A DNA stretch of 64,000 nt from Dictyostelium discoideum (GCA_000004695.1 CM000151.3:7840001-7904000), one strand, 5' to 3'. Positions 33,932-53,175 are shown, counted from the stretch's first letter. The notes: generated by a model from the sequence alone, not told the origin. Numbers and translations: made by a program.

Positions 33932-33989
<58 letters not shown>

Positions 33990-34311
33990 CAAGTTAATCA
34001 GAAAAATAAAAAAGATAGAAAGAAAATAAAATGAAAATCACAAACAACACCACAAATATTAAGCAACACAAATGCCTACAAAAAATAAGCGAAATTGTGG
34101 ATAAAACTCAATTAAAAAAAAAACAATTCAAATACGTCATAAACATCAATCACGAACCAGACGATAAAATAAAAAAAGATTTAGAAAAAAGTTTGGACAA
34201 AAAAGATGTTTTAATCAAAAAGACCCTGTAAAAAAAAAAAATAAATAAAATGAGATCTAGCATCTCAAGGAGAAGCAAATAATAATTGCGTTATCCAATT
34301 CAAAAAAAAAA
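31886..34311 (+). mobile_element. TRE5-A (DRE) non-LTR retrotransposon, ORF2-deleted variant (TRE5-A.2-like), 48 bp upstream of tRNA-Leu, divergently oriented
   Basis: A-module tandem units (199-bp period) at 31886..~32200. B-module cctgggaacccaagttaatcag.. follows. Intact ORF1 is at 32301..33635. ORF2 is reduced to its first 9 and last about 20 codons (junction at 33872/33873). Then come poly(A), B-module tail + ORF1' (first 66 codons) + terminal C-module ...ttgcgttatccaattc + A10. A 15-bp TSD 'tttataaatatatat' lies at 31871..31885 and 34312..34326. The distance from the tRNA 5' end (31837) is 48 bp. Confidence 0.85.
32301..33635 (+). CDS. TRE5-A ORF1 protein (444 aa)
   Basis: Intact ORF. 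It is 98-99% identical to the ORF1 copies at 39581..40915 and 42048..43382. Confidence 0.85.
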   Translation: MKITNNTTNIKQHKCLQKISEIVDKTQLKKKQFKYVININHEPDDKIKKDLEKSLDKKDVLIKSNNTFKILTDSISTVIYFVNMFDAELKGQFITTIRPKNMYTDFDWYKSLTEIEWVIENEGCKLIKLEIKGETLIIKTVKRVVEEFDTIIELDNLTLIGHSNKGWRDQTSLPENQEENKNKKQSDEQQPQSTSEQIPKQGKRTIIIPPITSSSNDKTFMALDDTAQKVIEASLENVDELTRIENEINTQSINNQEIKTKSEKPIEPPSPYNTPIKQHGETKGLTTEEKLREANDIFDFTSPNTDAIRKIEFPLSIPSNQWFFSSPIKHIMSFSPTYGTPSKIIDSPSKLLNTPKKKQQDKTNKTNKTPVKPKLGEYGQKSIKTKMDEDIDNFNKEILKQINKSKNPTNTQDQQHNEQSKDQLEDKINQKLQKVDKNLPQIKL

Positions 34312-34326
34312 TTTATAAATATATAT

Positions 34327-34560
34327 AATTAATAATTATATAATTGAATAATACTTTGTTATCTTTATTTAATATTAGTTTATATTTATAATATTCAATA
34401 TTGTTTATAAAATTATTCTTTAGTATTTATATTATTTATAATGAGTTGACAGTATTATTATTATTATTATTATTATATTATTTAAATGTGTGTCAACTAT
34501 AATTAGTAATGTAATATGCATATTTAATATCTATTAATTTTATAGAGTAACTTTATTACA
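34327..34560 (-). repeat. 3' LTR of the DGLT-A-like element (major part; its first 34 bp lie at 31852..31885, displaced by the TRE5-A.2 insertion)
   Basis: Sequence identity with 36683..36916. Its continuity with 31852..31885 is established by the 15-bp TRE5 TSD 'tttataaatatatat' at 31871..31885 and 34312..34326. Confidence 0.8.
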
Positions 34561-34572
34561 TATCCCCCCCTT

Positions 34573-35183
34573 TTAGTTGAAAATTTTTTTCAATCTTTCA
34601 ATATTGACTACTTTATGATCTCTAAGATTACCCATATCTAATTTGAATGTAACATCGCTAACTTTTTCTTGAACTTTAAAAGGACCTCTCCAAGGTTTAT
34701 AGAATTTCTTTGGACCAATAGAAGTTTGTGAATATGGTGTATGTAAATAAACAAAATCACCTGTTTGAATATTTGTTGGACGACGACCTTTATCATAATT
34801 TGTTTTTTGTAATTCTTGAGCTTTATCGAGATTATTCTTTGTAAACCAAAAGGCACGTTTAAGATTATTATTTACGGATTGTGCATAATTATCAGCGAAA
34901 TCTAATCTTAGTGAATTTGTACATGGATTTCTTATTAATGGTTGAATTGAAGTTATTTGTGATTTAATTATTGAATTCTCTGTTTGATTTAATGATATTG
35001 ATTTTAATGGTAAATTTGATGTTATTGGTGAATCTATTGGTTCTTGGAATAAGAATTCTGGAATATCGTAATCTATTGGTAGTTGTTCTTCAATAGTTGG
35101 ATACGATTTGATTGATAGTATATGATGAGAATTAAAATTTTCAATTAAATGATCAGTATCTGTTAATAATTCTGATTTTGATG

Positions 35184-35217
<34 letters not shown>

Positions 35218-36469
35218 TGAATAATCAGATACTGTTTTAAATATAGTTTGTATACATGGTTGGGTTTCTTTAGATATTAATTTGGTACCAACATTGAATT
35301 CAAGATTCTTAATGATCATTTCTTTAAAATCAATTACTAAATTTAATCCAATTATTGTATCAATGCCAAATATACAATCAATTGATGTATCATTATCTTT
35401 AACAACATTAACTTTAACTCTAGCGAATGCTTTACCTAATTTAATTGTTGTGTTACTTATTCCAATGATTTTGATTTCATTATTTGATGCTGATTTAACA
35501 GAATATTGTTTATTTTCAATCTTTAATTTTAACTTTTTAGCAATACTTTCCCAAACAATAGTAAGTGATGAACCAGTATCAATCAAACCTCTAACATTTT
35601 TATTATTTATTAATAAAGCTGCATTCATACTATCTATTCCGATTGAATTAATTGTACTATTATTGACCATTGTAATTGAATTAGTTCTATTATTGTAATT
35701 GTTATTATTATTTTTATCTTTTGACCAACACTCTTGAATTACATGACCTTTCTTTTTGCAGTATTTACAAAATTTTGTGATTGAATTTACTTGATTTTGT
35801 GGTGCTTTATAAGGGGATGATTGTGGTGAATATGTTTGATTTTTATAAATTGGAGTTGCTAATACTTCAGTTTCAGTAGATTGTTCAGTTTGAGATGTAA
35901 CGTACTGTGGTGATGTTGTATAACCAGATCTAGAACCAAGATACTTTTGAGTTCCAAATTCTTGTAATGTTTTTGCAACCAATTGACCAGTATACATTGA
36001 TCTACCTCTCATACGAATTGAACCATCTTCACAAGACTTTGCAATATCTATTGCTCTTTTTAATGATTTTGGTGCACATTTTGTAATTTCAATACCCAAT
36101 TCAGTACCAACAGCTGAATAAAACAATTGTATTTTAAACTTTTCTGAAATATCAACTGCTGAACATTTTGATAGAAATTTACCAATTAATATATCTAATG
36201 TATTGTATTTATATTCTCCCAACTTTGTTAATTCTGTTAAATCATCACTATCACCAATATCAAAAGCATCTTTAAGATCTTCAATTATCTCCATTGCTGT
36301 TAAGTCTGTATCCAATGTTGCGGCATATTCCAATGCATTGTTTCTTAGTTTTCTAATAATATCAGCTTTCGATATTTCCTCGCCATGAATTAGTAAGAGT
36401 AAGTGTTTGAATTTACGAAATGATAAACCTTTTCCATCGCCCGAAAAAATTATGTTTTCATTATTATTC

Positions 36470-36471
<2 letters not shown>
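34573..36471 (-). CDS. Gag-protease-(delta RT/RNaseH/IN core)-integrase C-terminus fusion ORF of the deleted DGLT-A-like element (632 aa)
   Basis: CCHC knuckle 'KFCKYCKKKGHVIQEC'. Protease active site 'LIDTGSS'. The C-terminus 'KAQELQKTNYDKGRRPTNIQTGDFVYLHT...KKFYKPWRGPFKVQEKVSDVTFKLDMGNLRDHKVVNIERLKK' is typical of a Ty3/gypsy integrase C-terminal domain. No RT (YxDD) or RNase H is present, yet the frame is retained across the deletion. Confidence 0.7.
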
Positions 36472-36539
<68 letters not shown>

Positions 36540-36635
36540 TATTAAATTAAATTTAATCTAATGTACAATTTTAATTGATTGAATAATTTGATAACTTTAT
36601 ATTTATAGTATATTTTTTTTTTTTTTTTTGAAAGA

Positions 36636-36646
36636 CGATGTCGCCA
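36636..36646 (-). other. Primer-binding site of the LTR element, complementary to the 3' end (+CCA) of tRNA-Ser(AGA)
   Basis: The plus strand reads cgatgtcgcca, which is the acceptor 3' strand CGATGTC + discriminator G + CCA of the tRNA-Ser gene at 38701..38782. On the element's sense (minus) strand this is TGGCGACATCG, 2 nt after the LTR end ...TTACA. Confidence 0.75.
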
Positions 36647-36648
36647 AA

Positions 36649-36916
36649 TGTAATAAAGCTTGTTAGCTTTATAAATATATATAATTAATAATTATATAAT
36701 TGAATAATACTTTGTTATCTTTATTTAATATTAGTTTATATTTATAATATTCAATATTGTTTATAAAATTATTCTTTAGTATTTATATTATTTATAATGA
36801 GTTGACAGTATTATTATTATTATTATTATTATATTATTTAAATGTGTGTCAACTATAATTAGTAATGTAATATGCATATTTAATATCTATTAATTTTATA
36901 GAGTAACTTTATTACA
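36649..36916 (-). repeat. 5' LTR of the DGLT-A-like element (268 bp)
   Basis: Near-identical to 34327..34560 plus 31852..31885. Confidence 0.8.
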
Positions 36917-36949
36917 TTAGAATTAATTTACGTAATAAAACCTCTTTTG

Positions 36950-37070
36950 TAAGTTTGGAAACAAATCATCCCGTTCGATCTGATAAGTAAATCGACCTCA
37001 GGCCTTCCAAGTACTCTGGTTGGAGACAACAGGGGAACATAGGGTGCTGTATACTTTATTTACTCCGATT

Positions 37071-37104
<34 letters not shown>
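36950..37104 (+). pseudogene. 5'-truncated 5S rRNA sequence fused to a TRE5-B/C-type 3' terminus + A32 (chimeric retropseudogene)
   Basis: About 108 nt, taagtttggaaacaaatcatcccgttcgatctgataagtaaatcgacctcaggccttccaagtactctggttggagacaacaggggaacatagggtgctgtatactt. It carries the universal 5S helix IV/V features GTACT.GG.TGGAGAC and GGGAA.A.GGGTGCTGTA. It is directly followed by 'atttactccgattc' + A32. Compare the 3' tail 'gcgttactccattc'+An of the TRE5-like fragment ending at about 38155. It is flanked by aacctcttttg at 36939..36949 and 37103..37113. Confidence 0.65.
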
Positions 37105-37106
<2 letters not shown>

Positions 37107-37115
37107 CTTTTGCAT

Positions 37116-37199
37116 GACCCTGTAAAAAAAAAAAAAAAATAAAATAAAATGAGATCTAGAATCTCAAGGACAAGCAAATAATAATTGCGTTATCCAATT

Positions 37200-37231
<32 letters not shown>
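37116..37231 (+). mobile_element. Extreme 5'-truncated TRE5-A copy (terminal C-module only, about 85 nt + A31)
   Basis: tgaccctgt-A16-taaaataaaatgagatctagaatctcaaggacaagcaaataataattgcgttatccaattc + A31. This matches the 3' end of every TRE5-A copy in the window. It is flanked by cctcttttgca at 37105..37115 and 37232..37242. Confidence 0.7.
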
Positions 37232-37234
<3 letters not shown>

Positions 37235-37496
37235 CTTTTGCATTTATTACAATTATCTTAAATTTATGTCAAATAATATTTCAAATTAATAATTAATTAA
37301 TTTATTATAAATATAAAAAAATTATTTAATTTTAATTAGGCTGTTAATTTCATTGTTAAACGATAAAATCTATTAAATAAAAATATAAATAAATAAATTA
37401 ATATATAAAGTGTTTTAAAGATTATTAAATATAAAATAAAGATTAAATTTTAAATATAAATAAAAACTATAATATTTGTAAAATAATAATTACAAA

Positions 37497-37955
37497 AGAC
37501 CACTTTCGTTACATTTAAAGGTATAGATCGGAAATAAGATTACATTCAAGATAAAAGTGGAGCTTCCAAAATAACGTGGAGTGGAAATATTCAACAAACT
37601 GGATATTCCACTAACAGCCAACGCCATAGCTATAATATGTGAAAACATTTGGAAAAGAAGAAACAAAAGAATACACGAAGAAATCACTCTCAAAAACTTA
37701 AGAAAAGAAAAACCCAAACATCTTTTAATGAAAACGCAAGAAGCTGCCTGGGAAAGAACCAAAAAAACATATATAAATTAATAAGACAATCAAAAAAAGC
37801 AACAAAGATTGAAGCATCGAAAAAATTCAAATCCATCATCACCTCACAACTCGAAATATTCAGCAAAAACTAGAACTCTCCTCTATACATAGCAACACTA
37901 ATACCAAACCTAAACAAATATATAACATCACTCAACACACTCTATACCCTCAACA

Positions 37956-38018
<63 letters not shown>

Positions 38019-38155
38019 TAATACCACCCAAAAAAAAAAAAAAAAAAAAAAAAAGGGGACCATTGTAAAATTTAAACCTACTATAATGAAATGAGAAGAA
38101 TCTCTAGAAGAAGCAACTCACAATTGCGTTACTCCATTCAAAAAAAAAATTGTTC
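37497..38155 (+). mobile_element. Degenerate 5'-truncated TRE5-B/C-like non-LTR element 3' end (ORF2 C-terminus remnant + 3'UTR + poly(A))
   Basis: The frameshifted coding remnant 'ITWSGNIQQTGYSTNSQRHSYNM/ICENIWKRRNKRIHEEITLKN..KTQEAAWERTKK' is homologous to the TRE5-A ORF2 end 'HTWNVKILNHLQIALVANLIAIIFDKIWHKRNKLIHDEKEI..KTQRAAWDRTQ'. There is an A70 run at about 37968-38005. The terminal motif is 'aatgagaagaatctctagaagaagcaactcacaattgcgttactccattc' + A10. Confidence 0.55.
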
Positions 38156-38700: not shown

Positions 38701-38782
38701 CGACATCGGCAGGGTTCGAACCTGCGCCCCCGAAGGGATCTGATTTCTAGTCAGACGCATTAGACCACTTTGCTACGATGTC
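38701..38782 (-). tRNA. tRNA-Ser (anticodon AGA), type II
   Basis: Acceptor GACATCG/CGATGTC. D-stem GCA/TGC. Perfect anticodon stem TCTGA/TCAGA with loop CTAGAAA (AGA at 34-36). Long variable arm TCCCTTCGGGGGC (CCC-TTCG-GGG hairpin). T-arm GCAGG-TTCGAAC-CCTGC. Discriminator G. Confidence 0.85.
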
Positions 38783-38829
38783 TTTGAAGTTTAGAATGAA
38801 CGTCGTATCTCAAATTGTATGAAATTTAA

Positions 38830-39454
38830 GATTATTTCATTTTTCATATAAAAAAGACTTAAAAAACAAATAAATAAATAAATAAACTATTTTAAAAAGC
38901 CATCTTTTTACTTTATTGTAATTTATTATTTGTTTCGTTTTGAGAATTTTGCGTAGCAAAATTTTCAAAAAAAAAGCAAAAAATAATCAGATCGAAAAAA
39001 ACAAACAACAACAACAATCTCTTTTTTTGATTATTTCATTTTTCATATAAAAAAGACTTAAAAAACAAATAAATAAATAAATAAACTATTTTAAAAAGCC
39101 ATCTTTTTACTTTATTGTAATTTATTATTTGTTTCGTTTTGAGAATTTTGCGTAGCAAAATTTTCAAAAAAAAAGCAAAAAATAATCAGATCGAAAAAAA
39201 CAAACAACAACAACAATCTCTTTTTTTGATTATTTCATTTTTCATATAAAAAAGACTTAAAAAACAAATAAATAAATAAATAAACTATTTTAAAAAGCCA
39301 TCTTTTTACTTTATTGTAATTTATTATTTGTTTCGTTTTGAGAATTTTGCGTAGCAAAATTTTCAAAAAAAAAGCAAAAAATAATCAGATCGAAAAAAAC
39401 AAACAACAACAACAATCTCTTTTTTTGATTATTTCATTTTTCATATAAAAAAGA

Positions 39455-39505
<51 letters not shown>

Positions 39506-41211
39506 GGAACCAAGTTAATTAGAAAATTTCCAGATTTTTAACTTTTTAAAGAAAAATAAAAAAGATAGAAAGAAAATAAAATGAAAATCACAAACAACAC
39601 CACAAATATTAAGCAACACAAATGCCTACAAAAAATAAGCGAAATTGTGGATAAAACTCAATTAAAAAAAAAACAATTCAAATACGTCATAAACATCAAT
39701 CACGAACCAGACGATAAAATAAAAAAAGATTTAGAAAAAAGTTTGGACAAAAAAGATGTTTTAATCAAAAGTAATAATACATTCAAAATTCTCACAGACA
39801 GTATTAGTACAGTAATCTATTTTGTAAATATGTTTGATGCAGAATTAAAAGGACAATTTATAACCACTATAAGACCAAAAAATATGTATACAGATTTTGA
39901 TTGGTATAAATCACTCACAGAAATAGAATGGGTAATAGAAAATGAAGGATGTAAACTAATTAAATCAGAAATTAAAGGCGAAACTCTAATTATCAAAACA
40001 GTGAAAAGAGTCGTAGAAGAATTTGACACTATCATTGAACTAGACAATCTAACATTAATTGGACACTCCAACAAAGGATGGAGAGATCAAACCTCATTAC
40101 CAGAAAATCAAGAAGAAAACAAAAATAAAAAACAATCAGATGAACAACAACCACAATCTACATCAGAACAAATACCAAAACAAGGAAAAAGAACAATCAT
40201 TATCCCACCAATCACATCCTCATCTAATGATAAAACATTTATGGCCCTAGATGATACAGCTCAAAAGGTAATAGAAGCATCACTAGAAAACGTAGATGAA
40301 CTAACAAGAATAGAGAATGAGATCAATACACAATCGATAAACAATCAAGAAATTAAAACAAAATCAGAAAAACCTATCGAACCACCATCTCCATACAATA
40401 CACCAATAAAACAACACGGCGAAACAAAGGGACTAACAACGGAAGAAAAACTTAGAGAAGCAAATGATATCTTCGACTTCACCAGCCCAAACACTGATGC
40501 AATAAGAAAAATAGAATTCCCACTTTCAATCCCTTCAAATCAATGGTTCTTCTCCTCTCCAATAAAACATATCATGAGTTTCAGCCCAACCTATGGTACA
40601 CCATCGAAAATTATCGATTCACCAAGTAAATTGTTAAACACACCAAAAAAGAAACAACAAGACAAAACAAACAAGACCAACAAAACACCAGTCAAACCAA
40701 AATTGGGTGAATATGGACAAAAAAGCATAAAAACAAAAATGGATGAAGATATAGACAACTTCAACAAGGAAATTCTAAAACAAATCAATAAATCAAAAAA
40801 CCCCACAAACACACAAGACCAACAACACAATGAACAAAGTAAAGATCAGTTAGAAGACAAAATAAACCAGAAACTTCAAAAGGTAGATAAAAATCTACCC
40901 CAAATAAAACTATAAAGAAAAACACAATAAGAATAGGTGTTTGGAACGTCCAAGGATCCAACACCATCCAATCTGCCAGCATAATAAACACCGTTTTAGA
41001 CAACAACAAGCTGGACGCAGCACTTCTAACTGAAACAAATATAAAAACAAATAAAATTTACTCAATAAATCAACAATATAAAAACAAAATAACACACCAC
41101 GCACCAATTGATAAAACAGGACAAGGGGTGTCACAAATCATCATCAACACCCGCAATAGAACTTCCTAAACATCTCAAAAAATACAATAATTCACTCAGT
41201 ACTTTCTATAA

Positions 41212-41267
<56 letters not shown>

Positions 41268-41594
41268 CAAGTTAATCAGAAAAATAAAAAAGATAGAAAG
41301 AAAATAAAATGAAAATCACAAACAACACCACAAATATTAAGCAACACAAATGCCTACAAAAAATAAGCGAAATTGTGGATAAAACTCAATTAAAAAAAAA
41401 AAAACAATTCAAATACGTCATAAACATCAATCACGAACCAGACGATAAAATAAAAAAAGATTTAGAAAAAAGTTTGGACAAAAAAGATGTTTTAATCAAA
41501 AAGACCCTGTAAAAAAAAAAAAAAAATAAAATGAGATCTAGCATCTCAAGGAGAAGCAAATAATAATTGCGTTATCCAATTCAAAAAAAAAAAA
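38830..41594 (+). mobile_element. TRE5-A.2-like (ORF2-deleted) copy #2, 48 bp upstream of tRNA-Ser
   Basis: Same architecture and the same ORF2 deletion junction as copy #1. The A-module array has about 3.3 units (38830..~39455). ORF1 is at 39581..40915, ORF1' at 41309..41512, the C-module tail + A12 ends at 41594. The TSD 'ttgtatgaaatttaa' is at 38815..38829 and 41595..41609. The distance to the tRNA 5' end (38782) is 48 bp. Confidence 0.85.
39581..40915 (+). CDS. TRE5-A ORF1 protein (444 aa), copy #2
   Basis: Intact ORF, near-identical to 32301..33635. Confidence 0.85.
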   Translation: MKITNNTTNIKQHKCLQKISEIVDKTQLKKKQFKYVININHEPDDKIKKDLEKSLDKKDVLIKSNNTFKILTDSISTVIYFVNMFDAELKGQFITTIRPKNMYTDFDWYKSLTEIEWVIENEGCKLIKSEIKGETLIIKTVKRVVEEFDTIIELDNLTLIGHSNKGWRDQTSLPENQEENKNKKQSDEQQPQSTSEQIPKQGKRTIIIPPITSSSNDKTFMALDDTAQKVIEASLENVDELTRIENEINTQSINNQEIKTKSEKPIEPPSPYNTPIKQHGETKGLTTEEKLREANDIFDFTSPNTDAIRKIEFPLSIPSNQWFFSSPIKHIMSFSPTYGTPSKIIDSPSKLLNTPKKKQQDKTNKTNKTPVKPKLGEYGQKSIKTKMDEDIDNFNKEILKQINKSKNPTNTQDQQHNEQSKDQLEDKINQKLQKVDKNLPQIKL

Positions 41595-41904
41595 TTGTAT
41601 GAAATTTAAATTTTCAAAAAAAAGCAAAAAATAATCAGATCGAAAAAAAACAAACAACAACAACAATCTCTTTTTTTGATTATTTCATTTTTCATATAAA
41701 AAAGACTTAAAAAACAAATAAATAAATAAATAAACTATCTTAAAAAGCCATCTTTTTACTTTATTGTAATTTATTATTTGTTTCGTTTTGAGAATTTTGC
41801 GTAGCAAAATTTTCAAAAAAAAGCAAAAAATAATCAGATCGAAAAAAAACAAACAACAACAACAATCTCTTTTTTTGATTATTTCATTTTTCATATAAAA
41901 AAGA

Positions 41905-41971
<67 letters not shown>

Positions 41972-42047
41972 GGAACCCAAGTTAATCAGAAAATTTCCAG
42001 ATTTTTAACTTTTTAAAGAAAAATATAAAAAATAGAAAGAAAATAAA

Positions 42048-43382
42048 ATGAAAATCACAAACAACACCACAAATATTAAGCAACACAAATGCCTACAAAA
42101 AATAAGCGAAATTGTGGATAAAACTCAATTAAAAAAAAAACAATTCAAATACGTCATAAACATCAATCACGAACCAGACGATAAAATAAAAAAAGATTTA
42201 GAAAAAAGTTTGGACAAAAAAGATGTTTTAATCAAAAGTAATAATACATTCAAAATTCTCACAGACAGTATTAGTACAGTAATCTATTTTGTAAATATGT
42301 TCGATGCAGAATTAAAAGGACAATTTATAACCACTCTAAGACCAAAAAATATGTATACGGATTTCGATTGGTATAAATCACTCACAGAAATAGAATGGGT
42401 AATAGAAAATGAAGGATGTAAACTAATTAAATCTGAAATTAAAGGCGAAACTCTAATTATCAAAACAGTGAAAAGAGTCGTAGAAGAATATGACACTATC
42501 ATTGAACTAGACAATCTAACATTAATTGGTCACTCCAACAAAGGATGGAGAGATCAAACCTCATTACCAGAAAATCAAGAAGAAAACAAAAATAAAAAAC
42601 AATCAGATGAACAACAACCACAATCTACATCAGAACAAATACCAAAACAAGGAAAAAGAACAATCATTATCCCACCAATCACCTCCTCATCTAATGATAA
42701 AACATTTATGGCCCTAGATGATACAGCTCAAAAGGTAATAGATGCATCACTAGAAAACGTAGATGAACTAACAAGAATAGAGAATGAGATCAATACCCAA
42801 TCGATAAACAATCAAGAAATTAAAACAAAATCAGAAAAACCTATTGAACCACCATCTCCATACAATACACCAATAAAACAACACGGCGAAACAAAGAGAC
42901 TAACAACGGAAGAAAAACTTAGAGAGGTAAATGATATCTTCGACTTCACCAGCCCAAACACTGATGCAATAAGAAAAATAGAATTCCCACTTTCAATCCC
43001 TTCAAATCAATGGTTCTTCTCCTCTCCAATAAAACATATCATGAGTTTCAGCCCAACCTATGGTACACCATCGAAAATTATCGATTCACCAAGTAAATTG
43101 TTAAACACACCAAAAAACAAACAACAAGACAAAACAAACAGGACCAACAAAACACCAGTCAAACCAAAATTGGGTGAATATGGACAAAAAAGCATAAAAA
43201 CAAAAATGGATGAAGATATAGACAACTTCAACAAGGAAATTCTAAAACAAATCAGTAAATCAAAAAACCCCACAAACACACAAGACCAACAACACAACGA
43301 ACAAAGTAAAGATCAGTTAGAAGACAAAATAAACCAGAAACTTCAAAAGGTAGATAAAAATCTACCCCAAATAAAACTATAA
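42048..43382 (+). CDS. TRE5-A ORF1 protein (444 aa), copy #3
   Basis: Intact. It has a few substitutions relative to copies 1 and 2 (e.g. TTLRPKN, EEYDTI). Confidence 0.85.
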   Translation: MKITNNTTNIKQHKCLQKISEIVDKTQLKKKQFKYVININHEPDDKIKKDLEKSLDKKDVLIKSNNTFKILTDSISTVIYFVNMFDAELKGQFITTLRPKNMYTDFDWYKSLTEIEWVIENEGCKLIKSEIKGETLIIKTVKRVVEEYDTIIELDNLTLIGHSNKGWRDQTSLPENQEENKNKKQSDEQQPQSTSEQIPKQGKRTIIIPPITSSSNDKTFMALDDTAQKVIDASLENVDELTRIENEINTQSINNQEIKTKSEKPIEPPSPYNTPIKQHGETKRLTTEEKLREVNDIFDFTSPNTDAIRKIEFPLSIPSNQWFFSSPIKHIMSFSPTYGTPSKIIDSPSKLLNTPKNKQQDKTNRTNKTPVKPKLGEYGQKSIKTKMDEDIDNFNKEILKQISKSKNPTNTQDQQHNEQSKDQLEDKINQKLQKVDKNLPQIKL

Positions 43383-43594
43383 AGAAAAACACAATAAGAA
43401 TAGGTGTTTGGAACGTCCAAGGATCCAACACCATCCAATCTGCCAGCATAATAAACACCGTATTAGACAACAACAAGCTGGACGCAGCACTTCTAACTGA
43501 AACAAATATAAAAACAAATAAAATTTACTCAATAAATCAACAATATAAAAACAAAATAACACACCACGCACCAATTGATAAAACAGGACAAGGG

Positions 43595-46500
43595 GTGTCA
43601 CAAATCATCATCAACACCCAAATAAAAACAACAACAAAAACAATAAACGAAAGAATTATATCTTCCGAATGGATGATTGCAAAAACACAGATCAAATGCA
43701 CAACCATTTATGCCCCAGCAAAGTCAAACGAAAGACATGAATGGTATAAGGAAAATCTCACAGAAGAAATACTACACAGCGATATTATAACTGGAGACTT
43801 CAATGTAGACTGTTCAGTGGATAATAACCTTAACAAATATATTAAAACAATCTTCGACGAATTCGAATTTACAGAAATTAAGAATGGAATCACATTTCCA
43901 AGAAACAAATCAACCATCGATAGGGTCTTTGTCTCAAAGAAGATACTCCATCTAAACCCAATAGTTACTACTAAGGAAATCAAATTAAAATCTGATCACA
44001 ACATGGTAATCATTGAATTAAAAATACCAGAATACGAGCAACAAAAGAAAGGAGAAAGACTATGGAGACAAAACCTAGAAACTCTCAAAATGAATTCAAC
44101 CAGCCTCAAAATTAATAAAACAATTAAATACTACAATAAAAAATTCGAAGAGAACACCAGCAAATGGTACAAATTAAACATTTGCGAACAATGGTTGAAA
44201 CTAAAAGATGAAATAAAGAAACTGTCAATTAATATAGAAATTAGAGAAAGCAATAAAACCAAAAACAAACTAAAAGAACTCGCAGAAAAACTCGAAACAG
44301 CCAAAGATTCAAGAGCAATCTTCCTTAAAGAAGAGATCAACAATATTCTAAAGGAACAAGTAAGAATAAAACAAGCAAACCAAACCAACACCCACATCAA
44401 CAACAAAGAAACACCATCAAAATACTTAACCAGAAGGTTAAAAGTCCAAAGAAAGACAAATGAAATCCCTCAAATTCTAGATCCAAGCAACAATTGTTTG
44501 GTAACAAAAAACGAGGATATCCTCGAAGTAGCAAGAAGATATTACGAGAACCTGTACCAGAAGAGAGAATGCAACGAAGACACTCACCACGAACTCCTAA
44601 AAACATTCAATAAAAGGATTGATCAAAAGATATTGGACGAAATTAATCAACCAATAGAAGGATATGAAATCAGACTAGGCATTGAAAAAATACAAGAAGG
44701 AAAAGCACCTGGTAAAGATGGACTCCTTCCAACATTTTACAAAAACCACATTAATGAAATTCTACCAATAATATCAAAACTATACAATCACTTCTGGAAC
44801 ACAACAATCCCAAAGGACTTCAAACAAGGGATATTGATTACTATATATAAAAACAAAGGAGACCCAAACAACCTGGATAATTATAGACCAATAACACTTC
44901 TAAATGTCGATTACAAAATCTATTCGAAAATAATCAACAATAGGATCCTGAAGTTCTTAAACAAAATAATCTCACCATTCCAAACTGGATTCGTACCAAG
45001 AAGACTACTGCACGATAACATCATCACCTTAAACTCAACAATAGAAATAATAAAACGAGAGATTAACACAAAAGAGGATATGGAACCAATCATAACATTT
45101 TATGATTTTGAAAAAGCATTCGATTCAATCTCACATAACGCCATTCTACGTACTCTTGCACATCTAAAACTACCACTCAAAATGGTCCTCACAATAATGA
45201 ACTTACTCAATGAATCAGAAACATCAGTGTACATCAATAACTCATTATCTAAAAGCTTTACATCAAAAAGAGGAACCAAACAAGGTGATCCTATCTCTCC
45301 CACTATCTTCGCATTAGTGGTTGAATGCATGGCAACTACTATAATAAATGACCGCTGCATCAATGGTGTAACCAAAGAAACCATTAAAATACTACAGTTC
45401 GCCGATGATACAGCAACAATAGCATACAACTTTATGGACCATTTCCTCATGAATGAATGGATCAAGAAGTTTTGCCAAGCAACCAGCGCAAAAATAAACC
45501 AAACCAAATGCTCGTGTATCACTTTCAAATGGAACACCAGAACGCTATACACCGTCATAAAATCAAACGAAAGGTACCTCGGCTTTGACTTCAACAATAA
45601 GGGTATCAAATCCAAAATCAATACAATCTCAGACAACATCAGAGCTAAACTAGTAACATGGAACTCAACTTCATCAACCTATATGGGCAGACTCATAATG
45701 GCAAAAACATATGCACTATCTCAGTTAACGTTCCACACTTACATCAACACCACACCACAACACAATAGTATTGAAAATAACATCGTAAAATTCGTTTTCA
45801 ACACAAAATCTAAAAACTCTCTTTCACTACAAAGAAGACAAAACAACTATATCAATGGTGGCCTAAACTTATGGAACCTGAAGACAAGAGAACTAGCACA
45901 GAAAGCATGGTTATTCGAAAGATACCTCCACCAAAGAGTAAGTAACACTCCTAGTTCATATATAAAACTGTGGGAAGAGGAACTCAAAAACAACAACAAC
46001 AACAAAACAACAACAAAACAAAATCAACTACAACTACACTGGCAATGCAAGCAAGCATGGACCCAATTAAAAACTCCACAAAATAAACAAACACACTACG
46101 AACACCTCCCAAAATTAAAAAAAATATACGAAGATATGATGACAACTCAATCTCCTGAACACAACAAATTCATACCAACTCCTGGCCAAAAAGAAATAAT
46201 GACCAAAATTAATAGCAAACACCTTCCATTTAAAGAAATCAAAAAAATAATAAACATGAAAGGTAGAGATCTATTATGGAGATACACACTGAAAGCACTA
46301 CCAAAAATATACAACATGCCATGCCAACAGTGTGGGGAAGATGAGACCTCAGAACATATATTCTTCAACTGCAAAGCCCACATCAAAAACACACAAGAAA
46401 TCTTCAACTACACCCTAACTAAGTCTGGACACACCACTCACACCTGGAATGTGAAGATTTTAAACCATCTACAAATTGCACTAGTAGCCAATTTAATAGC

Positions 46501-46816
46501 TATTATATTCGATAAAATCTGGCACAAAAGAAATAAACTCATTCACGATGAAAAAGAAATAATAATTCACAGACAACAAGTCATACGTGAACTAATTAAA
46601 ACACAAAGAGCTGCATGGGACAGGACACAAGCGGTTATAAACAAAACATTAAGAATCAAATCAAAACAACGGCCAGAAGAACAAAATAAATTAGACTCAC
46701 TAATCTCGCTAAAGCTATTACAATTTAGCAGACAATGGAACTCACCTCTTCACGCAATAGAACTTCCTAAACATCTCAAAAAATACAATAATTCACTCAG
46801 TACTTTCTATAAATAA
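43595..46816 (+). CDS. TRE5-A ORF2 protein (1073 aa): apurinic/apyrimidinic-type endonuclease + reverse transcriptase + C-terminal Cys/His motif
   Basis: The N-terminal APE-like domain reads ...ITGDFNVDCS...KSDHNMVIIEL. RT motifs include 'YRPITLLNVDYKIYSKII', 'AFDSISHNAIL' and 'LQFADDTATIA' (a FADD box = YxDD). The C-terminus 'CQQCGEDETSEHIFFNCKAH' is an HC-type zinc knuckle. The frame is intact. Confidence 0.85.
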   Translation: MSQIIINTQIKTTTKTINERIISSEWMIAKTQIKCTTIYAPAKSNERHEWYKENLTEEILHSDIITGDFNVDCSVDNNLNKYIKTIFDEFEFTEIKNGITFPRNKSTIDRVFVSKKILHLNPIVTTKEIKLKSDHNMVIIELKIPEYEQQKKGERLWRQNLETLKMNSTSLKINKTIKYYNKKFEENTSKWYKLNICEQWLKLKDEIKKLSINIEIRESNKTKNKLKELAEKLETAKDSRAIFLKEEINNILKEQVRIKQANQTNTHINNKETPSKYLTRRLKVQRKTNEIPQILDPSNNCLVTKNEDILEVARRYYENLYQKRECNEDTHHELLKTFNKRIDQKILDEINQPIEGYEIRLGIEKIQEGKAPGKDGLLPTFYKNHINEILPIISKLYNHFWNTTIPKDFKQGILITIYKNKGDPNNLDNYRPITLLNVDYKIYSKIINNRILKFLNKIISPFQTGFVPRRLLHDNIITLNSTIEIIKREINTKEDMEPIITFYDFEKAFDSISHNAILRTLAHLKLPLKMVLTIMNLLNESETSVYINNSLSKSFTSKRGTKQGDPISPTIFALVVECMATTIINDRCINGVTKETIKILQFADDTATIAYNFMDHFLMNEWIKKFCQATSAKINQTKCSCITFKWNTRTLYTVIKSNERYLGFDFNNKGIKSKINTISDNIRAKLVTWNSTSSTYMGRLIMAKTYALSQLTFHTYINTTPQHNSIENNIVKFVFNTKSKNSLSLQRRQNNYINGGLNLWNLKTRELAQKAWLFERYLHQRVSNTPSSYIKLWEEELKNNNNNKTTTKQNQLQLHWQCKQAWTQLKTPQNKQTHYEHLPKLKKIYEDMMTTQSPEHNKFIPTPGQKEIMTKINSKHLPFKEIKKIINMKGRDLLWRYTLKALPKIYNMPCQQCGEDETSEHIFFNCKAHIKNTQEIFNYTLTKSGHTTHTWNVKILNHLQIALVANLIAIIFDKIWHKRNKLIHDEKEIIIHRQQVIRELIKTQRAAWDRTQAVINKTLRIKSKQRPEEQNKLDSLISLKLLQFSRQWNSPLHAIELPKHLKKYNNSLSTFYK

Positions 46817-46887
<71 letters not shown>

Positions 46888-47311
46888 GGAACCCAAGTTA
46901 ATCAGAAAATTTCCAGATTTTTAACTTTTTAAAGAAAAATATAAAAAATAGAAAGAAAATAAAATGAAAATCACAAACAACACCACAAATATTAAGCAAC
47001 ACAAATGCCTACAAAAAATAAGCGAAATTGTGGATAAAACTCAATTAAAAAAAAAACAATTCAAATACGTCATAAACATCAATCACGAACCAGACGATAA
47101 AATAAAAAAAGATTTAGAAAAAAGTTTGGACAAAAAAGATGTTTTAATCAAAAGTAATAATACAATTCAAAATTCGAAACAAAAAAAAAAAAAAAAAAAA
47201 AAAAGTAAACTAACCCCTCTTTTAGAGACCCTGTAAAAAAAAAAAAAAAAATAAAATAAAATGAGATCTAACATCTCAAGGAGAAGCAAATAATAATTGC
47301 GTTATCCAATT

Positions 47312-47345
<34 letters not shown>

Positions 47346-47368
47346 TATGAAATTTAAATTGTAAAAAA

Positions 47369-47530
47369 CTATAAATAAAATGAGATCTAGCATCTCAAGG
47401 AGAAACAACCAATAATTACGTTATCCAAAAAAAAAACAAAAAAATTATATGAAATTTAACATTTTAATGAGATCTAGCATCTCAAGGAGAAGCAACAAAT
47501 AATTGCGTTATCCAATTCAAAAATAAAAAA
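47369..47530 (+). mobile_element. Two older TRE5-A tail-only fragments (C-module 3' about 50-60 nt + oligo-A), each followed by a degenerate copy of the same target motif
   Basis: 47369..~47436 reads ctataaataaaatgagatctagcatctcaaggagaaacaaccaataattacgttatcc+A10, then 'attatatgaaatttaac'. 47466..~47530 reads aatgagatctagcatctcaaggagaagcaacaaataattgcgttatccaattc+A, then 'atctatgaaatactta'. Confidence 0.6.
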
Positions 47531-48240
47531 ATCTATGAAATACTTATAATATTTTGTATACTTGTGTGACCCTTGAACACACATAAATAATTAATAATAA
47601 ATTATAAATAATATTATATCTCTATATAATATTATATGTAATAAAGTTTTATTTATAAGTTTTGTTTGTGCACAATTTGGAATAAAACAACAACGAAATA
47701 TTTTTATTTTATTTTACTATTTATACTAAAATTAATTTTACTAAAGAAACCGTTGGTAAAATTTCTGAGAATAAAGTAAGAATATTGTATTTGTTAACGT
47801 CTTTTCAGTTACAGACTATTTCCATATTTGTATTTTACCAGGGATAAAAACTTTATAAATTAATTTATGTCCCTTAATTATTCTCGATTATTACAAAGAT
47901 TCAAATTCATCACGTAGTCAGGCCCTTTTTCTTTCAGAATAATTTATTCATACATAAAATATACTTACCTCTTCTAATTGTATTTAATATAATAAGATTT
48001 ATTTGATCACAACTTTATTTTTATCTTATTTTTACTATTTATGCGATGTATTTTCTGAAGGCCTAATAACAAATAGTAGAGAGGATTTAGAAAAATCCCA
48101 AACATCATCTCCATCAGCTTGAAAGATTTAGTTAACACTGGAACTCTCCCCTCCTCACAGTATCAAACCTTATACAATAAATCACGTCCCTAAACACTCT
48201 CTTTAAAAAAAAATTAAATAAATAAAAAAAAAAAAAAAAA
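47531..48240 (+). mobile_element. Possible degenerate retroelement 3' region (less AT-rich than its surroundings) ending in a TRE5-B/C-like terminal motif + oligo(A)
   Basis: 48125..48200 'ctggaactctcccctcctcacagtatcaaaccttatacaataaatcac..ctaaacactctcttt'+A-rich resembles 37862..37930 'ctagaactctcctctatacatagcaacactaataccaaacctaaacaaatatataacatcactcaacacactcta' of the TRE5-B/C-like fragment. No intact ORF is present. Confidence 0.3.
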
Positions 48241-48339: not shown

Positions 48340-49389
48340 ATAAAAAAGTTTTTGGGCTTTTTATTAAGATCATATTAAAATACTACCATTTTAAATAATT
48401 CCCCTTTTACCATTTTCTTATTTGGAATATTTTCAGATTTGGCAATTTCCTTTTTGGCTATTGGATTTGTCTTAAAAAAGTACATATCCCTTTTTTTAAT
48501 TTTCAAATAATTTAAAAAATTGAAAAATTATCAAGTTATAAAAAGAATAAACTTTTTTGAAAAAAATAAAATGAAATAATCATTAAAACAAATGTAAAAA
48601 ATAAAAATATAAAAAATAGAAAATTAATCTAACCTCTAACAATTAAAAAGGTTAAGATAAAAGTTGATTGATTGTTTAAAATAAATTAAAAAAAAGTTAA
48701 AGTTATTAAAAAAACTAAATAAGTAAATAAAATAAACAAATAAAATAATAAATAAATAAAAAACAAATTAAATAAAAATGTTTTTCTTTTAATTATAATC
48801 CAGATAATATATGAATCAATACCAATCATATGATAGAGAAAGGAAAGATTTATCTATGCACTATATCATAAAGAAAGGTTGATCATCATATAAATATAAT
48901 TTTTAAAGTAATTAAATGAATCAATACTAATCAAATGTCAGAGAAAGGAAAGATTTATCTATGCACTTTGGCATTTTGAAAGAAGATGATATCATTAATA
49001 ATTAAAAAATGACTATTTTATATAAATATCATTTATATATAAATGATATAAATGATATTTATATATAAATGATATAAATGATATTTATAATTAAAAAATT
49101 AGAAACCAAAAAAACAAAAAAAAAACAAAAAAAAGGTTTAATAAAATACATATTTTTTTTATTATTATTGTATAATATAAAAAAACTATTTCCTTTCAAT
49201 TCTATTATTAAATAAAAAAAATTCAAATTATACAAATATTTTGTTATTATCTTATTTTTTGAAAAAATAAATTAAAAAATTCCATTTTTCAATTTTTTTT
49301 TTTTTTTTTTTATTTTTAATTTTAATTTTAATTTTACTTAAAATTTTTATTTTTAATTCAAGTTAAAAATAAAAAAAAAATAAAATAAA

Positions 49390-49875
49390 ATGACAGTAAT
49401 TAATAAAGAATTATTTATAAATAAAAAAGTTTATCAAGATAATAAAATTGAAAATCAAACATATGAATGTGTAATTGATCATATTGGTGATGAAAAATAT
49501 GTAATATTAGAACTTACACCTTATGTAACAACCGATAGTGAAGGTAAACCATTAAAATATTTAGAGAAAAGATATGTTTTAGCATCAACAGATACAGAAG
49601 CCTATCATAGTGGTCAAAAACAATGGTATGTAGAAAACACCAAAGAATTACATAAAAAGAAATGGAGATCACCAGAATGTTTAGGTGGAGGAATCATGAC
49701 AATTGATCAAAATAATAAATCAATTAAAACTTTTGGAACAAGTTATGGTTATGGTGATCCACCAATTGAAATCCTAAAATCAATCTTAAATACAGTTTAT
49801 CCAAATTATAATCTTGATATTACAATTACTTCTGAAGTTAGAGAATTAGTTAAACCAAAACATAATGGATATTAA
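49390..49875 (+). CDS. Hypothetical 161-aa protein
   Basis: Clean ORF with an ATG in good context, preceded by a long AT-rich promoter region. No family assignment is possible from the sequence alone. Confidence 0.4.
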   Translation: MTVINKELFINKKVYQDNKIENQTYECVIDHIGDEKYVILELTPYVTTDSEGKPLKYLEKRYVLASTDTEAYHSGQKQWYVENTKELHKKKWRSPECLGGGIMTIDQNNKSIKTFGTSYGYGDPPIEILKSILNTVYPNYNLDITITSEVRELVKPKHNGY

Positions 49876-49955
49876 AAAAAAAAAAAACAAAAAAAAAAAC
49901 AAATAAAAAAATAATTATTTAATTTTTAATTTTATTATTATTATTTATTATTGAT

Positions 49956-50986
49956 TTAAATACAACCAGTACAAGATGAAATGAAACCATCTTTTATTTT
50001 AGTTTCAACGGAACAATTACATCTTCTTTTTAAATCTAAAGAAGCTAAATCCATATTATTATGTATTATTAAAATTTGAGTTTGATCAATGATTTTACGA
50101 GTGATTTCAGATTTTGAACGATCAGTGAGGTAATCGAATAGATTTGGTAATTGAACACCAGGAATATTACAAGATTTTAATATTGATTTTAATTTTAAAC
50201 CATTGAAAAACCCGATTTTCTCTTCTAACTCTGGTAACAATGGTAATAGATCATAATAAAGTTTACCAATATTTAATAATCTATTAATTGGTCTAGATTC
50301 AATTGATTGTGTATTAACTAAACATGTTGCAAATGAACAATATGATGATGGCTTAATACTATATAATCCATATCCCATCATATTTAACATTGGTTCTAAT
50401 GCTTGACCAACATTTAATGGATAAAAATCATCACCATTAATACTACCATCTGTTGATTTTTCAATTTCTTTAATTAATTCAAATGGGTCATTTATATTAC
50501 AAATTAAATTTTCATTTTCTTCATTATTATTATTATTATTATTATTATTAATATTATTATTAAAAATTGTTAAAGTTTCAACTAATTGTTTTGGTGGTCT
50601 TTCTAATGATAAAATTATAAATCTAATTACATCATTACTTTTTCTTAATAATTTTAAAACATCTGTTAAATTTGCAAATTTTCTTTCCAATGCAACGGTT
50701 ACAACACATTGCATATCTGAATATTCTCTTAATACATTTAACAATTGATTAATTTCTTTAATGAATATTAATTCATCACCTTGTTTTAAATAATATTTTA
50801 CAGCTGGATAAACTTTTGTACCTAATAAACAAGAATTACTTAATTTACCAATTTCATTTAATCTCTCTAATGTAACCTCTAACAATATTGGATAACCTTT
50901 TAATAAACTTGATATATATTTAACTTTATCATTTATACCATTTATATTATTACTACCTCTTGCTATAACTTTTAAAACAAACTATA

Positions 50987-51035
<49 letters not shown>

Positions 51036-51525
51036 ATTATATTAATTTTTGTGCACTACACCATTATCATTAATTATTAATTATTATTAATTTTTACCTT
51101 TTTATTTTTTGGATAAAAAGTTTGAAATTGTTGAATATTAAATTTAATTTCATCATCTGATAGAAATGTTGAATTTTGAAATATTGAAAATTCTAAAACA
51201 AAATTTGAGATGGTTGGATTCTTTGAAACTTTAATTTGATTATTACCATCATTATATTTACCCATACTTTCTATATCTTTAATGGAACTATTATTAAACC
51301 TATTACCAATTACAGGATCAAATGATAAAATTCTTTTAAAAAATTTTAATGATGAACAATAAAGTGTTTCAAATTGTTTACTATGATTTTGTTCACAACA
51401 ACATTTTAAATAAACTTTATCATCATCTCTTGATACTACTATCGCTGGTTTTAATATCAACCCTTTTCTATTTATAATTGTACAAATTGGGCAAAATGTT
51501 TGTGTATCATATAATATAGTTTCCA

Positions 51526-51526
<1 letters not shown>
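49956..51526 (-). CDS. Hypothetical conserved-looking protein, 2 exons (about 484 aa), with a Cys cluster at the N-terminus
   Basis: Exon 1 is 51098..51526 (METILYDTQTFCPICTIINRKG...KVYLKCCCEQNH...FYPKNKK, GTAAAA donor at 51097). Exon 2 is 49956..50981 (FVLKVIARGSNNINGINDKVKYISSLLKGYPILLEVTLERL...CNCSVETKIKDGFISSCTGCI*), after an aaattatAG acceptor. Exon 2 contains an (AAT)n tract, giving poly-N. Confidence 0.5.
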
Positions 51527-51585
<59 letters not shown>

Positions 51586-52018
51586 AAAACTAAAATTAAT
51601 ATCTTTTTTTTTTTTTTTTTATTTTTTCGTTCGTTCGTTTGTTTTTTTTTTATAAATAAATAGTTTTATATATGTAAAAAATGAAAAAAAAAAAAAAAAA
51701 AAAAAAAAATCAACAAAAAAAAAATAAAAAATTTAAAAAAACAAAACCAAGCAAAACAAAATATAAAAGATTTTTTATTAAAATATATTATTTATTTTTT
51801 TTTTTTTTTTTTATTTTATTTTTTTTTTTTTTAATGAGATATAAATCCAATAATGTGAGTGTGGTGTGTGTGCGTGCACATTAATATTTACTTTTCAAAA
51901 ATCTAATTTATCAAGATTTTAAAAATTATAATAATAATTTTAATAATAGGTTTTATTTTTGTTTTTATATTTTATTTGTTTTTATATTTTATTTGTTTTT
52001 ATTTTATTTGTTTTTATT

Positions 52019-52639
52019 TTATTTATCTTCTTCACCTTCAGAATCAGAAGCAATTAAACCATCATAATCTTCATCATCATCATTACAGAAAGAATCAATT
52101 GGATTACTCCAAACTGAACCAACTATAAAGGTTGCAATATCTTTAGTTGGATTTAATAAGAATTTTAAAAAACCTGAAATTTCATCATCATCTTCATCTT
52201 CATCTTCATCATCTGTTGATTTTTTTGAATCTTTATTTTTCTTTTCAGTTTCAGTTTTATTTTGTTTTAATTCAATTGGAGTTGTAGAGATTTTAACTTC
52301 TTGTGATAATTCTTCAGATGTAGTTGGTGTTGTAACTGTAATAATAACTTGTTTATTTGAAATTATATCATTTTCTCTAAAATCAATAAATAAACGAAAT
52401 TCTGTTTCTGTATCTTCAACAAAGAAATCATCAACACACATTGTTAATTCATCAACAAATCCTAATTTTAAAAATAAATTTGTAAACTTTTTTTAAAAAA
52501 AAAAAATAAAATAAAAAAAACATTTTATTTATTATTGAATTATTAGTATTTATAAATATATTAATTTAAATAAAAAAATTTTTTTTTTTTTTTTTTTTTT
52601 TTTCTAAACAATTTTTAATTAATTTCTCAAAAGATTGTG

Positions 52640-52671
<32 letters not shown>

Positions 52672-52927
52672 ATTAACTTACAATAGTGGCCCAAAAATCT
52701 GGGATTTCTAAAAGTAATGCTCTTCTTTCTCTATATAATGGTTCAGCTGATTTATAAATATCTTTATCACATTTCATTAATTCTAAATCCTTTTCACCTG
52801 TTAATTTTTCAATTTCATCTGATAATGATTTTAATTCAGTATCTTTATCAAATAATTCTAAATATACTGCTTTTGGATCATCCTTTTCAAATTCTACCTC
52901 AACTTCTTTTTTTTGATGTTTTGACAT
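52019..52927 (-). CDS. SET/TAF-I-like nucleosome assembly protein (NAP family), 2 exons, about 237 aa, acidic C-terminal tail
   Basis: Exon 1 is 52682..52927 (MSKHQKKEVEVEFE...LYRERRALLLEIPDFWATI, GTAAGT donor). Exon 2 is 52019..52486 (FTNLFLKLGFVDELTMCVDDFFVEDTETEFRLFIDFRENDIISNKQVIITV... ending in a DDEDEDEDDDE acidic run). 'IPDFWATI' matches SET 'IPNFWVTTF'. 'TETEFRLFIDFRENDII' matches '[22 protein letters not shown]'. Confidence 0.7.
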
Positions 52928-53012
52928 TTTTTATTTTGAAATTTATATTAACAATAACCAATGAAAAAAAAATAAAAATAAAAAAAAAAAAAAAAAAAAA
53001 ATAAAAAATTAG

Positions 53013-53044
<32 letters not shown>

Positions 53045-53175
53045 GAAAAAAAAAAAAAAAAAACGAAATAGAAAATTAAAAATAAATAAAAATAAATAAA
53101 AAAAAATAAAAAAAAGAAAAGAAAGTAATAGCAATATAAATTCGAATATGTGTATTTTATTTATTTATTTTTTGA

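Follow-up and report, generated by a model that had tools for sequence, protein, structure and literature searches.

How do several retrotransposons come to stand one behind the other in front of a single tRNA gene, and can the order of their arrival be read from what they left behind? The question is posed by a stretch of 64,000 nucleotides of Dictyostelium discoideum AX4 chromosome 2 (chr2:7,840,001-7,904,000; G+C content about 20%), referred to here as the window, in which the tRNA-Ser(AGA) gene is preceded by a series of TRE5-A elements. TRE5-A (formerly DRE) has the architecture A-B-ORF1-ORF2-B-C-oligo(A), with modules A, B and C and two open reading frames (ORFs) (PMC5391098; PMC5633606). 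A reading of this DNA made without database searches (the sequence-only reading) had proposed a stack of a TRE5-A.2 element, a full-length TRE5-A.1 element and two C-module fragments, and this arrangement was confirmed by blastn, by ORF analysis and by an independent assembly. We found four TRE5-A insertions at one spot within an older solo long terminal repeat (LTR), and they very probably form a chronological stack of retrotransposon insertions before one RNA polymerase III (Pol III) gene.

Results

Arrangement of the stack and its distance from the tRNA gene

The tRNA-Ser(AGA) gene lies at 38701-38782 on the minus strand (ARAGORN; Rfam tRNA, 61.5 bits) and is SerAGA-5 (AX4 chr2 7878701-7878782, offset 7,840,000) in S2 Table of PMC5391098. 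Between its 5′ end (38782) and the first TRE5-A base (38830) there are 47 nt, the element thus starting at −48 in head-to-head orientation, which agrees with the distance of about 48 bp claimed before. From the tRNA gene outwards follow, all on the plus strand, a TRE5-A.2 element of 2765 bp (E1, 38830-41594), a full-length TRE5-A.1 element of 5733 bp (E2, 41610-47342), a 5′-truncated tail consisting of a C-module only (E3, 47358-47444) and the oldest tail fragment (E4, 47460-47531); the A-tails of E3 and E4 are interrupted. The four inserts differ in structure and in 5′ end point, so they are independent events. The position of insertion is set by the Pol III gene, tRNA-Ser(AGA).

ORF1 and ORF2 are named only 'hypothetical protein' in the databases, and the elements are assigned to TRE5-A by architecture, target rule and organism. 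We found 199-bp A-modules, a B-module, ORFs overlapping by 25 nt, a repeated B-module, a C-module and an A30 tail, and head-to-head insertion at 47 nt from tRNA-Ser and, for a second copy, at 48 nt from tRNA-Leu. Proteins of the window agree exactly with products of AX4 genes (ORF2, DDB_G0277365; the flanking Ocnus-domain gene, DDB_G0277367; ORF1, several DDB_G entries). The single-copy Ocnus-domain gene (49390-49875) was used to retrieve the orthologous loci from other assemblies, which are denoted L001 (GCA_054883475.1, a 4.9-Mb contig), L002 and L003 (labelled D. discoideum, ACTFIW), L004, L005 (D. cf. discoideum), L007 (D. firmibasis) and L008 (D. citrinum).

Target-site duplications

The three 15-mers described as copies of one target-site duplication (TSD) are indeed identical. 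A search of the whole 64 kb found the exact TTGTATGAAATTTAA only at 38815, 41595 and 47343, that is as T0 (38815-38829, −33 to −47 from the tRNA gene), T1 (41595-41609) and T2 (47343-47357); T3 (TTATATGAAATTTAA, 47445-47459) has one mismatch, and all four are on the plus strand. The length of the TSD is 15-18 bp, as up to three left-hand A's are ambiguous with the poly(A) tails.

The sequence-only reading had also quoted degenerate versions of the target at the older fragments, the most distal being TCTATGAAATACTT. These motifs are present as quoted, but their interpretation as products of decay did not stand. The uninterrupted paralogous copies of the LTR read TTCTATGAAATACTT at the target (...CCAAC TTCTATGAAATACTTATAATA in the alignment to the L002 and L005 copies), and because they carry this matching sequence, the distal motif is the ancestral target and not a decayed copy. 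In AX4 the ancestral target, TCTATGAAATACTTATAAT, starts at 47532, and the right TSD copy of E4 is 47532-47541.

The thrice-used 15-mer, on the same comparison, is a derived and composite sequence of LTR and filler. It consists of 11 LTR bases (TTGTATGAAAT) followed by TTAA, which the LTR does not have and which is the start of the filler at the E4 5′ junction (TTAACATTTT, then the C-module). At T3 the four bases TTAA (47456-47459) belong to this junction, not to the LTR; the filler continues with CATTTT (47460-47465), and C-module homology begins at about 47466. As TTAA is absent from the uninterrupted LTR copies, E4 must have made it and later insertions must have copied it; E4 thus came before E3, and E3 before E2 and E1.

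The solo LTR around the stack

The sequence-only reading overlooked that a single LTR provides the flank of the stack on either side. Once the stack is removed, 38792-38825 and 47532-47895 join into one repeat of about 390 bp. The last 10-11 bases of its tRNA-proximal part are the original TRE5-A target, and the remainder, as aligned to the L002 and L005 copies, begins with TCTATGAAATACTTATAAT and ends with ...GATTATTACA. The stack-less repeat is colinear with L002 7999-8397 (85.5% over 413 bp) and with L005 149-548 (82%). The uninterrupted copies start with TGTAATGAACG... and the AX4 copy with TAGAATGAACG; all copies end with GATTATTACA. On the tRNA side of the LTR, nine bases of native tRNA-Ser upstream flank (tttgaagtt, 38783-38791) were recognized by alignment to the L002 flank. 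The native flank resumes at 47896-47971, pushed 9 kb away by the LTR and the stack, and is orthologous there to L002 9644-9708 and to the region upstream of the L003 tRNA-Ser. Taken together, 38783-38791 and 47896-47975 are identical to the L002 tRNA-Ser upstream sequence at 64 of 81 positions, a score reached by none of 1000 shuffles.

The joining of the flanks as an LTR and the resumption of the native flank beyond it point to the insertion of an LTR element in the AX4 lineage, 9 bp upstream of tRNA-Ser. According to these alignments, both flanks of the stack are one solo LTR of about 390 bp starting 9 bp from the tRNA gene, and the TRE5-A target, rather than being native tRNA flank, sits inside this LTR. 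A rearrangement by transposition or inversion, suspected from the presence of stack-flank sequence upstream of tRNA-Leu in L002, was rejected because the shared sequence is the repeated LTR, which inserted independently at different tRNA genes, and because the true tRNA-Ser flank resumes beyond it.

The LTR family has the termini TGTAAT...ATTACA and starts 9-14 bp upstream of tRNA genes. Besides the window, copies were located at L002 7996-8391 and at L005 about 146-548 and 3680-4070. In L005 a full-length gypsy-type element with a single ORF has a more diverged version as its tRNA-proximal LTR; this element sits 13 bp upstream of tRNA-Ser and encodes a protein only about 25% identical to the AX4 DGLT-A ORF. 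DGLT-A itself is defined by a 265-bp LTR, by a primer-binding site (PBS; TGGCGACATCGTCTTTC) that lies 2 bp away from this LTR and by its insertion upstream of tRNA genes at a distance of 13-33 bp. The host LTR resembles DGLT-A and the 'H3R' solo LTRs (Spaller et al. 2016, PMC5006619) in its tRNA-upstream start, its TGTAAT...ATTACA termini and its solo state. It differs from DGLT-A in its length of about 390 bp, in the lack of the PBS and in its start 9-14 bp from tRNA genes, and it matches the genuine DGLT-A LTR of the window over 57 bp only (79%). In view of these sequence features, it is probably a second tRNA-upstream family related to DGLT-A.

The full-length TRE5-A.1 element

E2, delimited by blastn, ORFs and Pfam, has its 5′ end within an A-module, which is followed by one complete A-module. 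ORF1 (42048-43382, 444 codons) is open, and ORF2 has an uninterrupted frame between stop codons (43358-46816, 1152 codons), so that the earlier claim of a full-length copy with both ORFs open was upheld. The ORFs overlap by 25 nt. The segment 41908-42258 (B-module and 5′ end of ORF1) is repeated at 46824-47175 (99.7%), and a C-module (about 47225-47312) and the A30 tail (47313-47342) follow. ORF2 matches the Pfam family RVT_1 at 3.3e-33. A match to Exo_endo_phos (5e-4) is below the Pfam cut-off and covers 203 of 225 profile positions; zf-RVT is matched at 0.02, and the sequence contains a recognizable CX2CX7HX4C motif. PF03372, PF14529 and PF13966 are present in distant homologues of ORF2, and nothing in the PDB matched the ORF2 N-terminus in a sequence search. 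The assignment of the endonuclease is weaker than that of the reverse transcriptase.

The annotated gene DDB_G0277365 starts at the Met codon at 43673. Upstream of it are 105 open codons (43358-43672) with no ATG before codon 106; they overlap ORF1 in the −1 frame and hold the N-terminal part of the endonuclease (IGVWNVQG..., LLTET), and the gene model therefore probably truncates the real ORF2 protein.

Counted from Met-106, the ORF2 protein of E2 is unique to this locus, being one residue away from a variant on six contigs and two residues away from two other variants. At several other loci of AX4 the encoded ORF2 protein is only 1-2 residues different, and some of these variants are commoner across loci. 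The ORF1 protein is common to at least four AX4 loci (accessions include EAL68868.1). The copy had been put forward as a candidate active master. Judged by its sequence, it is intact and plausibly competent for retrotransposition, but with ORF2 variants one or two residues away elsewhere in AX4 it appears as one of several candidate autonomous copies, and nothing marks it as 'the' master.

The TRE5-A.2 element

E1, delimited by blastn against the full-length copy and by its ORFs, consists of 3.2 A-modules of 199 bp (38830-39463), an internal A-run, a B-module, an intact ORF1 (39581-40915, 444 codons), an ORF2 remnant in which 262 nt of the 5′ end are fused to the last 64 nt (junction at 41152), and a shortened B′ repeat/C-module region with an A12 tail. 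It misses 3133 bp of ORF2, with the same junction as a second A.2 copy at 31886-34296 upstream of tRNA-Leu. In the region from ORF1 up to the deletion junction, E1 and the adjacent A.1 show 19 differences over 1572 aligned sites, against 4 over 1577 for E1 and the tRNA-Leu A.2 (99.75% identity). Seventeen of the 19 differences are A.2-specific, i.e. common to both A.2 copies, as are the 3133-bp deletion in ORF2 and a second deletion of 86 bp. Six further A.2 loci with the same junction were found in a look-up with the ORF1 of the tRNA-Leu A.2, and the ORF1 protein of E1 is present on 14 contigs across assemblies.

The shared junction, the 86-bp deletion, the 17 substitutions and the six additional loci argue that E1 belongs to a propagating A.2 lineage of its own and does not derive from the neighbouring A.1. 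The suggestion that A.2 is a trans-complemented derivative of its neighbour can thus be kept in one half only. ORF1 retention, ORF2 deletion and lineage membership are evident from the sequence of E1, and the mobilization of A.2 in trans by some A.1 copy is known from publications (PMC5391098); the comparison of the two ORF1 regions, which had been recommended as a check, spoke against a neighbour origin. The helper ORF2 cannot be assigned to the adjacent A.1 in particular.

The tail fragments

E3 and E4 were both delimited by blastn and alignment. E3 is 87% identical to the A.1 C-module (blastn). For E4 the identity is 94% by blastn, and 50-52 of 52-54 bases (96%) agree with the A.2 C-modules. 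The two fragments have different truncation points and are identical at only 57 of 64 positions. With 87% for E3 and 96% for E4, divergence does not track the order.

The locus in other assemblies

L001 contains A.2, A.1 and the tails in the same order with both internal TSD junctions, and it is colinear with the window at 99.1-99.3% over A.2, A.1, the tails, the LTR remainder and 12 kb of unique flank. The distance from tRNA-Ser(AGA) to the flanking gene is 10.6 kb in AX4 and 230-370 bp in L002, L004, L007 and L008; at about 285 bp in L007 and L008, there is no space for an LTR or a stack. The orthologous tRNA-Ser of L002 is empty, and that of L003 is occupied, at 47 bp, by a TRE5-like element of another kind, whose TSD, CCTTTTTCATTGAG, is 14 bp long.

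L003 4245-9690 is a full-length element of a second TRE5-like family, with nucleotide identities to TRE5-A of about 84% in the A-module and about 65% in ORF2. Fragments of this family that match the 3′ part of the L003 element are present in the window at 37538-38149 and 48091-48240. The latter has an A-rich run at its end and may represent an earlier layer on the distal side of the LTR. Over the flanking 10 kb including genes (window 49236-59799), L002 and L003 are about 90% identical to AX4. This divergence is far above the within-species expectation, and the two assemblies may represent a cryptic lineage.

A tandem of two A.2 copies was noticed at a tRNA-Lys(UUU) gene (L014 9381-14570; GCA_054883475.1, JBTAPE010000004.1), the contig ending in the second copy. 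The two copies share the TSD (A)TATATCTAATTTC and an identical 5′ truncation point, agatcgaaaaaaac, and the tandem has the appearance of a duplication or of an assembly effect rather than of two insertions.

The neighbouring tRNA-Leu stack and a 5S rRNA copy

The window contains three tRNA genes, tRNA-Ser(AGA), Val-AAC (5634-5708) and Leu-UAA (31755-31837), the last two being ValAAC-9 and LeuUAA-3 in S2 Table of PMC5391098 with the constant offset 7,840,000. A genuine, internally deleted DGLT-A (31852-36913, minus strand) lies 14 bp upstream of tRNA-Leu(UAA) and shows all three features that define this family. The two LTRs of 265 bp are 100% identical to each other, and the element is flanked by a TTAG TSD. 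It has the published PBS in exact form at 36630-36646 (minus strand) and a polypurine tract at about 34562-34575. Its ORF (34573-36471) has gag zinc-knuckle, protease and integrase C-terminal matches, and a look-up of the ORF protein gave no record. The second TRE5-A.2 copy (31886-34296) sits in the tRNA-proximal DGLT-A LTR, 48 bp from tRNA-Leu, with the 15-bp TSD TTTATAAATATATAT.

Distal to DGLT-A, the region 36941-37260 contains in this order CCTCTTTTG, a copy of 5S rRNA, 'tttatttactccgattc', A30, CCTCTTTTGCAT, a C-module fragment, A31 and CCTCTTTTGCAT. Without DGLT-A these layers would start about 47 bp from tRNA-Leu, and L002 holds their empty site, aaaCCTCTTTCGCtttcattacaa. The 5S copy (Rfam match 36936-37055) is 5′-truncated by about 15 nt and has no 5′ strand of helix I. 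Its TSD, CCTCTTTTG, is the one that the older C-module fragment already had. Of the 17 nt that follow the 5S copy, the final 8 have 7 bases in common with the 3′ end of TRE5-A, and this linker may be the TRE5-A 3′ end or the 5S 3′ trailer. By its sequence, 36941-37102 looks like a retro-copied 5S rRNA, possibly a template-switch chimera with the TRE5-A 3′ end.

Chimeric retro-copies of small Pol III RNAs (U6, 5S) made by L1 are known in mammals. The segment 36941-37102 resembles them in that 5S is joined to what seem to be the last 8-12 nt or so of a retrotransposon and to poly(A), has a TSD and lies at the normal target position; it differs in the truncation of its 5S part by about 15 nt at the 5′ end and in the ambiguous origin of the linker. 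A literature search for 5S pseudogenes or chimeras in Dictyostelium found nothing relevant, and to our knowledge template switching by TRE5-A has not been described.

Discussion

The structure of the locus suggests the following history. A Ty3/gypsy-type LTR element would have inserted 9 bp upstream of the tRNA gene and remained as the solo LTR of about 390 bp. Four TRE5-A insertions into this LTR would have followed, all with the 5′ end facing the tRNA gene, the first at −44 and the next three at −48. E4 would have duplicated about 10 bp of the LTR (TCTATGAAAT) and added filler at its 5′ junction. A staggered 15-bp cut from −33 to −47, spanning 11 LTR bases and the first four filler bases, would then have accompanied E3 and generated the composite 15-mer. 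Finally the tRNA-proximal copy would have been cut again at these two positions, by A.1 and then by A.2, leaving three identical 15-mers. From the position rule we infer that A.1 arrived before A.2, whereas the order of E4 and E3 is structural. Repeated insertion at a fixed distance, each time into the tRNA-proximal TSD copy with the proximal elements being the younger ones, had been proposed from the sequence and agrees with this history. The position of the cut would be set by the distance from the tRNA gene and not by local sequence. As to the mechanism, the literature suggests that the ORF1 protein contacts TFIIIB, a contact cited as the targeting mechanism (PMC5633606), that the ORF2 endonuclease/reverse transcriptase would perform target-primed reverse transcription, and that A.2 would take its ORF2 protein in trans from some A.1 copy.

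A tandem with a shared TSD would also be expected from unequal crossing-over or local duplication of a unit of element plus TSD, and the A.2 pair at tRNA-Lys, with its common TSD and truncation point, looks like such a duplication or an assembly effect. The units at tRNA-Ser are, however, unlike in kind (2.77-kb A.2, 5.73-kb A.1); their 5′ ends lie at an A-module start in A.2 and in mid A-module in A.1, the number of A-modules, the tail length and the 19 of 1572 sites differ, and the truncation points of E3 and E4 do not coincide either, with only 57 of 64 identical bases. We regard duplication as highly unlikely. Another rival is that repeats were mis-joined in the AX4 chromosome 2 assembly of 2002-2005, TRE5-A copies 98-99% identical to each other being a classical source of such errors. 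That this happened has next to no probability, given the colinearity of the independent L001 with the same TSD junctions and the fact that the flanks rebuild one continuous LTR.

Two further explanations concern the origin of the parts. In the model of the sequence-only reading, all five motif copies go back to one native 15-bp target and the distal ones have decayed with age; the identity to the 15-mer does fall with distance from the tRNA gene (15/15, 15/15, 15/15, 14/15, about 10/15). Yet according to three independent LTR copies, ACTTATAAT and not TTAA comes after TATGAAAT in the uninterrupted sequence, and the distal copy would need about five changes in 15 bp while the adjoining 70-bp E4 is 94-96% conserved. 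Decay of a native target is very unlikely on these grounds. The physical adjacency of A.2 and A.1 and their common family architecture could suggest that A.2 was made from its neighbour by deletion and re-inserted alongside. This is hardly conceivable, as the deletion junction, the 86-bp deletion and the 17 substitutions are common to the tRNA-Leu A.2 (99.75% identical), the ORF1 protein occurs on 14 contigs and six further A.2 loci have the same junction.

Several observations weigh against a chronological stack of independent insertions. No intermediate state of the stack was found; the comparison of strains gave the whole stack (L001) or none (L002-L005, L007, L008), and the empty assemblies are diverged by about 10% or more in the flanks. 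The proximal E3 (87%) is more diverged from modern C-modules than the distal E4 (96%), although these are small numbers. The order of A.1 before A.2 has no independent support, the TSDs being identical and the A.2 tail (A12) being shorter than the A.1 tail (A30). The third TSD position (38817, 41597, 47345, 47447 and 47533) is G in T0-T2, A in T3 and C ancestrally, the C also being found in two LTR paralogues. Three bases among five copies imply two substitutions at one site.

The stack at SerAGA-5 is real and represents already known behaviour, and it is a clean example, not a discovery. TRE-TRE tandems are typical of occupied tRNA genes (Spaller et al. 2017, PMC5391098). According to the same study, 80% of TRE5-A integrations fall within 47±3 bp in strict orientation, filler bases are frequent at 5′ junctions, and 91 of 98 occupied tRNA genes gained new tagged copies; de novo TRE5-Absr pseudoreads numbered 12, 7298 and 261 at SerAGA-5 and 4, 22599 and 8957 at LeuUAA-3 (S2 Table). 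Nanopore mapping gave TSDs of 10-16 bp and placed the new copy 'above' a resident A.2 (2022, PMC9012585). The SerAGA-5 stack shares with the published tandems the distance of 47±3 bp, the head-to-head orientation, an A.2 derivative, TSDs, filler and the position of the new copy between tRNA gene and resident, and nothing essential is different. The exact triple re-use of a TSD, the composite origin of the TSD and four layers at one site are details not spelled out in PMC5391098 and PMC9012585.

The integration hot spots of yeast Ty3 and Ty1 are analogous in that Pol III factors serve as the integration ruler and repeated insertions and solo LTRs accumulate at the same tRNA genes. In contrast to TRE5-A, a non-LTR element that relies on endonuclease nicking and target-primed reverse transcription at −47, the yeast elements are LTR elements with an integrase and insert at about −15.

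To the published picture the SerAGA-5 stack adds two details, a composite TSD that was re-used exactly and three times, and a layer formed by an LTR. The locus provides a fully resolved natural example of four TRE5-A layers within an LTR layer, with a structural argument for their order, and it illustrates that the position of insertion ignores local sequence, native flank, LTR and filler all having been cut at the same distance. A more far-reaching proposition is that TRE5-A cuts are fixed by the Pol III distance so exactly that three events re-cut the same two bonds, one of them in filler from an earlier insertion, and that the same machinery retro-copied the 5S rRNA; this is possible, although we lean against it. 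The 5S retro-copy at the tRNA-Leu stack could be of interest as a TRE5-A template switch. If cutting is indeed precise to the bond, the re-use of TSDs could give a genome-wide readout of the Pol III ruler.

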